Below the pieces are notes generated by a model. That model made no database searches and had not been told where the DNA came from. It worked only from the letters and a program-made list of their open reading frames with translations. From a virus, in IMG/VR virus record IMGVR_UViG_3300028800_000060, positions 64,001 through 128,000 of that record: a stretch of DNA of 64,000 bases, one strand, 5' to 3'. A program made the position numbers and the translations under genes. Numbering within the stretch: position 1 is the first letter of the stretch; each line of letters opens with the position of its first letter. Positions 20,413 to 22,676 of the stretch are shown here, piece after piece.

Positions 20413-20922
20413 ATGAATACAATAACCGAACATAATGGTTTAGGTTCTACGGCAATATTTTCATCTGATAAAATTTATCGTTATTTTCTTTCCAGAAAAA
20501 CTGGTATACCTGGTAATAAAAAACTCATATGGATAATGCTTAATCCTTCCACAGCGGATGCTTTTAAATTAGATCCTACGGTTATACGTTGTTTTGTTCG
20601 TAGTAAAAGGCATTCGGCCAATGAAATGATTATCTTAAACCTATTCGGGTTTAGATCTCCATATCCCAAAGACCTTTACACAATTGAAGATCCCATAGGT
20701 CCCGATAATGACGAAATAATTGCATCTTCCTTACAAGGAAATAATGTTACATTAGTTTGTGCGTGGGGCAGTCATAAACTAGTACATGAACGCAGCCTTG
20801 AGCTTTGGAGTCGTTTGGTTGATATCTCCAAATATTGTCTGGGCACAACAAAGACGGGCCAGCCAAAGCATCCGCTTCATGTAGCTTATGAAGATGATTT
20901 AATTCCCTTTGACATCTTCTAA
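20413..20922 (+). CDS. DUF1643-family protein
   Basis: YRYFLSR, IMLNPSTAD...DPTV, NLF.FRSP.P, CAWG, G.PKHPL. Confidence 0.85.
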   Translation: MNTITEHNGLGSTAIFSSDKIYRYFLSRKTGIPGNKKLIWIMLNPSTADAFKLDPTVIRCFVRSKRHSANEMIILNLFGFRSPYPKDLYTIEDPIGPDNDEIIASSLQGNNVTLVCAWGSHKLVHERSLELWSRLVDISKYCLGTTKTGQPKHPLHVAYEDDLIPFDIF

Positions 20923-20956
20923 ATAATGTTGTATACTTAAATTAAAAGAGAATATA

Positions 20957-21541
20957 ATGGTACTTATAGATTTTAGCCAGGTTATGATTAGTAATCTGTG
21001 CGTGCTTCCGATGAAACAATTGGAAGAAAAAGAAACAAACGAATTGCCGGATCTTCGTCATTCTGTTATTCCTGGAATTCCTTCAGAAAAAAAAGATGAA
21101 ATTAACGAAGATTTATTGAGACATATGGTACTCAATAGTCTCCGATTTTATAATACTAAATTCGGAATAAAATACGGCCGGTTGGTGATTTGCTGTGATA
21201 GTCGCCATTATTGGCGAAAAGATGTATTCAAATATTATAAGGCGGGAAGAAAAAAGACCAGAGATAAATCTCCTTTAAATTGGAATTTAATTTTTGAAAC
21301 TCTCAATAAACTCCAAGATGAACTTGTAGAATACTTTCCCTATCAGGTTATTAATGTTAATGGTGCTGAAGCTGATGATTTAATCGGTGTGGTGGCAAAA
21401 CGAGAAAAAAAGAATGGTCCGGTTTTGATAATATCAAACGATAAAGATTTTATCCAACTATTAGATAAAAATGTTTCTCTATATCGGAATATATCCAAAG
21501 AATTATGGATTTTTGATAACAGTCCATCCATTACAGTTTAA
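20957..21541 (+). CDS. rnh: RNase H / 5'-3' exonuclease, N-terminal fragment
   Basis: LIDFSQ, CCDS..YWRK..F..YKA.RKK, EADDLIG, IISNDKDFIQL; resemblance stops at about SLYR (21487). Confidence 0.9.
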   Translation: MVLIDFSQVMISNLCVLPMKQLEEKETNELPDLRHSVIPGIPSEKKDEINEDLLRHMVLNSLRFYNTKFGIKYGRLVICCDSRHYWRKDVFKYYKAGRKKTRDKSPLNWNLIFETLNKLQDELVEYFPYQVINVNGAEADDLIGVVAKREKKNGPVLIISNDKDFIQLLDKNVSLYRNISKELWIFDNSPSITV

Positions 21542-21710
21542 ACGTTTTTGCGTGACTTTTCTAGCTTTAGAATTTGGAGGTAGTATTGGCCCTAAATTTG
21601 CATTTTTGTAAATTGTTGGAAAAGCCAATTGGTGTGTCTCACAAAAAGAAACAAGCATGCCGCAAAATTCAAAAATATTTCCGGAAATATCTATAAGGAC
21701 AAAGATTTTG
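21503..21710 (-). pseudogene. remnant of a homing-endonuclease C-terminal DNA-binding region, antisense inside rnh
   Basis: Minus strand reads KIFVLIDISGNIFEFCGMLVSFCETHQL...RLNCNGWTVIKNP*, like the C-terminal module of Seg/Mob-type free-standing endonucleases; no catalytic domain and no convincing start. Confidence 0.6.
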
Positions 21711-21715
21711 AACAA

Positions 21716-22105
21716 ATGGACTATAAGATTGTAAAACTTACAAAGAAACAAGTACACGAAAAACTCAGAGAACATATTATGCTCGGAGACCACAGCGATG
21801 GAATACCCAATTTCAAATCTCCGGATGATGCCTTTGTTTCTGGAACTCGTCAAACATCAATCCGGAAGAGTGATTTAGAACGTTGGGTAAAAGAAACTAA
21901 ACCGGAAAATTTTTGTGATAGTACGATGCTACGAGGATACCGGAGAAATCAAAAATTGATTGATCTGGATTTTATTCCTCAAGAAATACAAAATGCTATT
22001 GTGGAAGCATGGGATAAACCTTTCAGTGAATCGCGAAAGAAATTGTGGGATTATTTTGTAAAGTATAAGTTAGCTACATTAGCGGATCATTTAGGAGAAT
22101 TCTGA
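21716..22105 (+). CDS. rnh: RNase H / 5'-3' exonuclease, C-terminal fragment
   Basis: EHIMLGDHSDGIPN..SPDD.FV...RQ, YRRNQKLIDL.FIP; same frame as the N-fragment but separated by three stops. Confidence 0.88.
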   Translation: MDYKIVKLTKKQVHEKLREHIMLGDHSDGIPNFKSPDDAFVSGTRQTSIRKSDLERWVKETKPENFCDSTMLRGYRRNQKLIDLDFIPQEIQNAIVEAWDKPFSESRKKLWDYFVKYKLATLADHLGEF

Positions 22106-22244
22106 TGTGGAGATATTTGATATCTGCTTTTAATTCAATTATGGGAACTCATATTTGTTGCCATGAATGGGGAAAATGGCATGCCACATTCCATTTTCAA
22201 CATAGATATTGTAAATTGTGTTTTTATAAACAAGAAAAAGAAAT

Positions 22245-22676
22245 ATGAAATCTGTAGGAGAATTAATGAACATAAAAATTATTCCAGAAATTCTGGATGA
22301 AGTTGCAGCTTGTACCACGGAAGAAGAAGTGAGAAAAGTTCTATTTAAGAACCAATCTCCCGCAATTAAGAAAATGTTTGAATTGGTTTTTAGACCAGAA
22401 CACACATTTACTATTAAAGAACTTCCAAAATATAAACAAGATCCTGGGCCAATAGGTTTGAGCCCAAATTCACTATACGTAGAATTACGGAGATTCTATG
22501 TACTAGAGGATACCAAAGTTATTCCAGAAAAAAAGAAATTGGAAATACTTACTCAAATTCTCGAATCTATCCATCCCACTGAGGCCGAACTTGTCGGGAA
22601 AATTATCAGAAAAGATTTGGGTATTCCACTTCTAACTAAAGAAGTAATTAATTCCGTATATCCAGGTTTGGTATAA
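22245..22676 (+). CDS. conserved T4-like hypothetical protein downstream of rnh
   Basis: LY.ELRRFY...QILESIHPTEAEL. Confidence 0.75.
   Translation: MKSVGELMNIKIIPEILDEVAACTTEEEVRKVLFKNQSPAIKKMFELVFRPEHTFTIKELPKYKQDPGPIGLSPNSLYVELRRFYVLEDTKVIPEKKKLEILTQILESIHPTEAELVGKIIRKDLGIPLLTKEVINSVYPGLV

Follow-up and report, generated by a model that had tools for sequence, protein, structure and literature searches.

The 64,000-nucleotide (nt) stretch analysed here (the window) comprises bases 64001–128000 of a 175,698-bp IMG/VR virus record (IMGVR_UViG_3300028800_000060), whose genome is estimated to be 98% complete. Its RNase H gene (rnh), the only copy in the genome, lies in a region closest to T4-like marine and freshwater myoviruses (Kyanoviridae and Melnitz-type phages; ~46% amino acid (aa) identity). 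According to the listing of open reading frames (ORFs) and their translation, rnh is divided into two ORFs that lie 174 nt apart in the same frame (20957 and 21716 are both 2 mod 3), the first being followed by three in-frame stops (TAA 21539, TAG 21581 and TAA 21593), as a first-pass annotation made from the DNA letters had described. The features of the locus are as follows:

20909–20937, plus strand: sigma-70-like promoter candidate upstream of the N-half (TTGACA-17-TATACT; 11/12 consensus positions; consensus scan only)
20957–21541, plus strand: rnh N-half, 194 aa; N-terminal domain of the 5'-3' exonuclease/flap endonuclease (FEN) type, bearing most of the catalytic acids
21440–21541, plus strand: junction-proximal tract, codons 162–194; ~92% nt identity to the L021 lineage vs 60–70% in the rest of the gene
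21503–21715, minus strand: relic of a GIY-YIG homing endonuclease gene (HEG), its last ~65–70 codons and stop; DNA-binding module ...FC.(E/T)H.L.F...Y...KA...N..GWT
21542–21715, no strand: intercistronic spacer, 174 nt; contains the in-frame TAG 21581 and TAA 21593
21694–21699, plus strand: Shine-Dalgarno (SD)-like TAAGGA, 16 nt before ATG 21716
21716–21763, plus strand: C-half leader MDYKIVKLTKKQVHEK, 16 codons, not in intact homologues
21716–22105, plus strand: rnh C-half, 129 aa from the conserved ATG; T4 RNase H C-terminal (H3TH) domain with GDHSDG

Each half carries one of the two domains of the enzyme. PF02739, the N-terminal 5'-3' exonuclease (PIN-like) domain, matches the N-half (E 3.6e-21, 76 bits; cut-off 34.3) and PF09293 (RNaseH_C), an H3TH-type domain, matches the C-half (E 1.1e-16, 61.8 bits; cut-off 25), with the three in-frame stops and the 174-nt spacer keeping the two off a single polypeptide. 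The T4 RNase H structures 3h8s/1tfr match the N-half (E ~1e-25), residues 45–180 corresponding to T4 residues 34–174, and C-half residues 14–129 align with residues 186–305 of T4 RNase H (1tfr; E 5e-7). The break falls between T4 residues 174 and 186, which is the PF02739/PF09293 boundary and the inter-domain linker. Intact homologues run from ...KKFxxxDNP directly into xxxL(R/K)EHIxxGD; in the closest intact protein (P0004), residues 1–201 correspond to window 20957–21538 and residues 197–313 to 21752–22102. Relative to intact homologues, the window gene therefore holds ~213–225 nt of extra DNA, in agreement with the insert of ~225 nt claimed at first pass. The split itself had also been recognized correctly, although its placement at 'LYR' was too early: native similarity of the N-half extends ~10 codons further, to ...NISKELWIF. 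The N-half ORF ends in ...KDFIQLLDKNVSLYRNISKELWIFDNSPSITV before its stop, and its last ~9 codons (DNSPSITV and the stop) are the antisense reading of an endonuclease tail and not native rnh.

A 16.7-kb contig from a different ENA assembly (L019) is 100% identical to the window over 1251 nt across the split, and because of this independent agreement misassembly, which the first-pass annotation had named as a possible refutation, is excluded as far as assemblies can show. A third, short contig has the same rnh N-half. The genome holds a single copy of the 281-nt junction region, on which ground we rejected a mobile repeat as the junction DNA. No close DNA relatives of the locus were found by blastn against GenBank phages, and IMG/VR relatives of the N-half are at most 48% identical, so that the insertion boundaries cannot be fixed by aligning the DNA with that of an empty site.

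A minus-strand ORF (21503–21853) spans the spacer, and its reading is an exact match to the peptide quoted in the first-pass annotation, where it was likened to the C-terminal module of a free-standing endonuclease. This likeness proved to be homology to three GIY-YIG HEG products encoded at the same site in related phages (P0125, P0129 and P0130): in BLASTP the relic ORF matches residues 142–210 of P0125 (32% identity over 69 aa, E 6e-8), it aligns colinearly with the last ~70 residues of all three, and the homologous stretch is 21515–21709. Thirteen columns are invariant between the relic and the three HEGs (P0125 151–207), including G, G, L, FC, H, F, Y, KA, N and GW. When the complete genome (175.7 kb) was searched in six frames with P0125, a sole match came back, window 21515–21685 on the minus strand (E 1.5e-4). 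Given this colinear homology to resident HEGs and the single genome-wide match, the spacer is, as read from the sequence, the 3' relic of a GIY-YIG homing endonuclease gene whose catalytic domain (~140 codons) has been deleted; the C-terminal DNA-binding module is present, and PF01541, the GIY-YIG catalytic domain, has no match in the relic. The last 13 codons of the relic overlap the 3' end of the N-half by 39 nt, and it is the HEG's GWTVI codons, read antisense, that give the N-half tail DNSPS, which probably resembles the native DNP motif only by coincidence.

Relatives that retain the complete element were recovered with the N-half as query. Among thousands of intact proteins of ~285–310 aa, this search returned an N-only protein of 159 aa (P0061), encoded by 22 contigs of up to 217 kb. 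The gene order in this lineage (L028) is rnh N-half, then the 222-aa P0125 on the minus strand, then a 127-aa RNaseH_C gene. P0125 is of the GIY-YIG type (PF01541, 9.3e-9; homing-endonuclease family phrog_314, 5e-22) and was found on 22 contigs; contigs of the L028 lineage are identical to one another and so offer no polymorphism by which to gauge the split state. Two further lineages (L045 with P0129 and L046 with P0130) have HEGs that are 53–54% identical to P0125 and likewise lie antisense between the rnh halves. The full-length endonuclease that the first-pass annotation proposed to look for is thus present, intact, in three lineages.

The split also occurs without an endonuclease, in at least four lineages (L021/L022/L023 together with L026, L048, L049 and L051). 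The closest relative of the window gene is among these, L021/L022/L023 for the N-half (64% aa identity) and L026 for the C-half (71%). The L021-type N-half ends in ...ELWVFDDSPTIAI and a stop, which is followed after 5 nt by the ATG of MDYKTVKL in another frame. The shared frame of the window halves, pointed out in the first-pass annotation, carries no meaning, because relatives have the halves in different frames. The intercistronic length is 645–699 nt in HEG-bearing relatives, 174 nt in the window and 5 nt in L021, where the junction reads TTTAAAC/AAAATGG vs TTTAAAC...(relic)...TTTGAAC/AAATGG in the window; judging from these letters, the L021 junction fits a microhomology deletion of the remaining relic. 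Although HEG-less, L021 still has, within the end of its N-half, the HEG-tail codons in antisense (LNCNGWTVIKNP). Over the 39-nt overlap L021 and the window differ at five nucleotides, all of which are silent in the antisense frame and change the sense-strand amino acid (chance ~(1/3)^5 = 0.004, assuming equal use of codon positions). As all five are antisense-synonymous, this pattern suggests that the HEG was under selection until recently. Since the N-half tail is itself encoded by HEG-derived DNA, the HEG-less state would derive from the HEG-bearing one, at least in the window/L021 clade.

A profile-free C-half search of 1.84 billion representatives returned further stand-alone C-halves with non-native leaders, and the three examined (L048, L049 and L051) have no HEG, their two rnh halves being cistrons that either adjoin or overlap, as in L049, where the overlap is 23 nt. 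The junctions of the HEG-less lineages are of compact, coupling type (TAA-N5-ATG, an overlap, or GGAG-N7-ATG), and the C-half leaders of all split relatives are of the type ..Y.TK..[VI]..[FL]. Altogether the two-cistron layout was found in at least 7 lineages. Another stand-alone C-half match, L027, was rejected as an instance of the same split; its lesion is a different one, at the SGDKDF region. In this more distant rnh (L027:46–841; 46% identity) the ILILSGDKDF motif is lost through a frameshift or deletion, and the gene reads as an N ORF of 147 aa overlapped by one that carries the C-domain; it is either a pseudogene or an assembly error.

The seven split genes are spread across the rnh tree (133 rows), which led us to reject monophyly of the split forms: six changes are needed, at least 3 of them forced by well-supported branches, and the window gene groups with L021/L026 (support 97) inside a clade of 18 intact genes (support 99). 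The deep branches of the tree are poorly supported. By the junction, all split forms share QLL..NVS(I/L)Y(R)P instead of QL(Q/H)K(Y)PNVxQYxP. Over the 32 aa before the junction (PVLIIS...KELWIF) the identity of the window to its closest intact relatives falls to 38%, from 74% elsewhere, and that to L021 rises to 94%, from 67% elsewhere; third-codon-position identity to L021 is 0.3–0.5 in codons 1–100 and 0.87–0.93 in codons 162–191. Gene conversion of flanking sequence during homing is well known for the T4 seg and mob genes (PMC2988022). We infer that the junction tract reflects such conversion during HEG homing, in which case the split would travel with the HEG. With the other split lineages and many intact genes, the window tract shares 47–53% identity and is not distinctly closer to the splits; the donor of the tract is therefore unsampled.

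Both halves look functional from their sequences. The catalytic acids that the first-pass annotation had reported as intact lie in invariant or ≥90% columns of 44–45-row alignments (D5, D81, E138, D140, D141, D162 and D164 of the N-half; D25 and D28 of the C-half). The ratio of nonsynonymous to synonymous substitution rates (dN/dS, NG86) is 0.167 for the N-half vs L021 (dS 1.4) and 0.162 for the C-half vs L026 (dS 1.15), so that the comparison per half proposed at first pass gave no signal of relaxed selection, and the end branches of split forms are similar in length to those of their intact neighbours, i.e., there is no acceleration. Co-folding of the two chains, likewise proposed at first pass, gave an ipSAE of 0.88 in three runs, with the best of 3 controls at 0.00; the mark applied is reached by 58 of 80 solved complexes vs 2 of 110 mismatched pairs. 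The runs share ≥92% of contacts, with a partner pLDDT of ≥90. As T4 RNase H is solved as a single chain, this pass may stem from likeness to that enzyme and not be evidence about the pair itself. In the predicted complex, C-half leader residues 5–7 pair with N-half residues 183–185, a contact absent from the single-chain enzyme. On the combined evidence of sequence and model, rnh probably works as a two-chain enzyme.

The proposed restart at ATG 21716 is supported by relatives. Gene callers start the C-half upstream, at GTG 21632 (stored 157-aa product P0122) or, in the ORF listing, at TTG 21629 (158 aa), which adds a run-in of 28–29 aa through the relic. Relatives conserve only ATG 21716: the closest relative (L021-type) begins its C-half with the same MDYK(T)VKL, 5 nt after its N-half stop, which favours the two-chain reading offered at first pass. 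A late promoter for the C-half was considered and rejected, the late-promoter motif TATAAATA being absent from the spacer and not enriched in the window (11 found vs 10.1 expected).

Several observations weigh against a working two-chain enzyme left behind by a decaying endonuclease gene. In a sigma-70-like consensus scan the plus strand of the spacer has no promoter-like site, and because of this both halves are probably co-transcribed from the candidate promoter at 20909–20937. The 16-nt spacing between TAAGGA and ATG 21716 is long for a canonical SD. The relic peptide alone has no match in Pfam or PHROGs, its homology being confined to HEGs at the same site. The split is rare, with 0 of 78 classifiable IMG/VR loci divided (of the 80 best loci, contig ends cut 2 and the other 78 are single ORFs). 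Finally, if the HEG with its flanks arrived recently in the window and L021 lineages, as the ~92%-identical junction tract suggests, much of the dS may predate the split, and the low dN/dS is then not strict proof of constraint on the divided gene. The poor spacing of the SD-like site and the possibly older divergence would both suit a pseudogene, in which the insertion killed rnh, the ORFs are decaying, and the 5'-nuclease of host Pol I or another phage nuclease removes primers and flaps; rnh is, moreover, not strictly essential in T4, where rnh mutants are viable with host Pol I. We nevertheless regard a pseudogene as quite unlikely. Both ORFs are intact with all catalytic acids kept, dN/dS is ~0.16 per half on branches that are not accelerated, the genome has no second rnh, and the ≥7 lineages with this layout include HEG-less ones with tidy coupling junctions.

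Rejoining of the halves into one chain, by an unrecognised self-splicing intron around the relic or by ribosomal bypass as in gene 60 (splice or bypass being the fallback of the first-pass annotation) or by frameshifting, finds little to recommend it apart from the frame that the halves happen to share and the occurrence of group I introns and the gene 60 bypass in T4-like phages (PMC2988022). No group I intron (RF00028) or any other Rfam intron was matched in the window region up to E 10, nor any Rfam intron in seven related loci up to 0.01, the window region gave no other credible Rfam match, and the RNA fold of 21505–21770 is ordinary (minimum free energy z-score -0.6); a group I intron was rejected on these results. 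The spacer consists of antisense coding sequence with homology to an endonuclease, and in L021, with halves 5 nt apart in different frames, and L049, with overlapping halves, there is nothing to splice. A gene 60-type bypass was also rejected: the hop of 174 nt is more than three times the 50-nt gap of gene 60, and the downstream ATG with its MDYK leader is conserved in frame-shifted relatives. We consider rejoining extremely improbable. A reversal of the order of events, with the HEG invading the gap of an rnh that was already two cistrons and the relic being incidental to the split, has more in its favour, i.e., the four HEG-less split lineages, the weak deep branches of the rnh tree and the same ambiguity described for gene 43 and its intercistronic untranslated sequence (IC-UTS) in Aeromonas phages 25 and 44RR (PMC2988022). 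However, the splits are scattered among intact genes with at least 3 forced changes, the window pair sits inside the well-supported intact clade, and HEG-less L021 retains the antisense codons of the HEG tail with 5 antisense-synonymous differences. Invasion of an already split gene thus appears unlikely for the window clade; for the family of split rnh genes as a whole the reverse order may hold, and overall we judge it rather unlikely.

The best explanation overall, and one in which we have considerable confidence, is a two-chain RNase H left by a decaying antisense GIY-YIG HEG, with our confidence in the anatomy and origin of the split being higher still. Building on the observed anatomy, the relic homology, the intact HEGs at the same site and the conserved split and C-half start, the history may have run as follows. 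A free-standing antisense GIY-YIG HEG would once have sat in the part of rnh that links the N-terminal nuclease domain to the C-terminal H3TH domain, and its presence would have turned rnh into two cistrons. The HEG would later have lost its catalytic domain by deletion, leaving its last ~65 codons (the 174-nt spacer and the 39-nt overlap with the N-half). One transcript from the promoter-like site at 20909 would carry both cistrons and yield two polypeptides, the 194-aa N-half ending at TAA 21539 and, presumably, the 129-aa C-half starting from ATG 21716. The halves are predicted to reassemble non-covalently into one RNase H/flap endonuclease, whose metal site would be built by both chains, with DKD from the N-half and GDxxD from the C-half. 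The split itself may arrive with the HEG through homing and co-conversion of the flanks.

A more speculative extension, which we put forward tentatively and think somewhat less probable than its opposite, is that the HEG acts as a 'split cassette' composed of the HEG, ~30 upstream codons, the HEG-encoded N-half tail and the 14–16-aa C-half leader. If so, a single homing event would replace an intact rnh by a functional two-chain enzyme, a beta-strand zipper of tail and leader would join the chains, and the split would persist after decay of the HEG. Such an enzyme would be the first FEN-family nuclease to be two-chain in nature, and its HEG would be a selfish element that carries the adaptor making its own insertion harmless.

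A close known parallel is nrdA/mobE of Aeromonas phage Aeh1 (PMC2988022), in which, as in rnh, a free-standing HEG lies in a conserved enzyme gene of a T4-like phage. By analogy with nrdA-a/nrdA-b, the two rnh cistrons would give products that must reassemble, with active-site residues from both chains. The host gene differs, however, being rnh (FEN family) and not ribonucleotide reductase, and the endonuclease is an antisense GIY-YIG enzyme, in the window decayed to a ~200-nt relic, and not an HNH-type MobE. T4 genes 39/60 with mobA (PMC2988022) are also alike, as an essential replication-related gene, contiguous in relatives, that is divided by an endonuclease gene and whose pieces function as subunits; unlike them, rnh is without an evident bypass element and is split at the domain linker of a small monomeric nuclease. 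Gene 43, divided into 43A/43B, resembles rnh in that some relatives have an HEG between the halves (a seg-like HEG in Aeromonas phage 25) and others a short untranslated spacer (44RR; PMC2988022), but the rnh spacer is homologous to the 3' end of the HEG and a further relative (L021) has deleted even that. The order-of-events ambiguity left open for gene 43 would, on sequence grounds, be settled for the rnh clade. Compared with T4 RNase H (PDB 1TFR, 2IHN, 3H8J), a single-chain FEN-family 5'-nuclease, the window enzyme has the same Pfam domains, catalytic acids and length and differs in its two polypeptides, the extra 16-aa C-half leader and the HEG-derived N-half tail. HEG-split phage genes are also cited in PMC10448857.

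Neither a split rnh nor a split flap endonuclease turned up in full-text searches of the literature. The gene is contiguous in relatives, an endonuclease lies between its halves (intact in L028, L045 and L046, a relic in the window), and each half has its own stop and start and shows constraint, although part of the divergence may predate the split. Most likely, rnh joins nrdA/mobE, 39-60/mobA and gene 43 as a new example of the known class of HEG-split phage genes. To our knowledge, only a few cases of HEGs splitting essential phage genes have been described, with little documentation of what becomes of the HEGs afterwards. Here, one gene offers the full natural series, from intact rnh through a live antisense GIY-YIG HEG and the relic of the window to a clean two-cistron arrangement without the HEG, indicating that a protein's architecture can be altered for good by a selfish element. 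A flap endonuclease that is split in nature, with its active site spread over two chains, would help in work on how FEN domains assemble and might also serve as a split-enzyme scaffold. In annotating T4-like metagenomic phages, stand-alone ORFs of the 'RNaseH_C' type and truncated ones of the '5_3_exonuc_N' type should not be labelled pseudogenes automatically.

Some minor features accompany these genes. The N-half contains a ~22-aa in-frame insertion (...LPDLRHSVIPGIPSEKKDE...; window 21020–21100, plus strand) relative to cyanophage and Melnitz rnh, and the closest intact relatives (the P0004 clade) and L021 have a longer version of it. Directly downstream, a 47-aa Cys/His-rich ORF (...CCHEWGKWH...CKLC...; window 22105–22248, plus strand), whose ATG overlaps the C-half stop (TGATG), sits between rnh and a DUF6433 gene (22245–22676) and is called in the independent contig L019 too. 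Among the relatives, L045 has a second endonuclease-like gene directly upstream of the split N-half (L045:3637–4281, minus strand; 214 aa), whose C-terminal module is of the same kind (...NISGNLQAFCKEKEI...), and rnh in this lineage is both flanked and interrupted by HEGs, forming a small 'HEG island'. The 217-kb relative has a SegE-type GIY-YIG gene (PF19835; L028:638–1090, plus strand) 3 kb upstream of its HEG-split rnh and thus carries several free-standing endonucleases. On L049, a match to HEARO RNA (HNH endonuclease-associated; L049:3306–3514, plus strand; E 1.4e-12, 71 bits, below the gathering score of 83) is followed by a 411-aa RRXRR-domain ORF (L049:3590–4825, plus strand), an IscB/omega-RNA-like element ~0.4 kb downstream of the split rnh. 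The phage contig L048, also with a split rnh, encodes a permuted tmRNA (RF04321, 100 bits; L048:4438–4632, plus strand).

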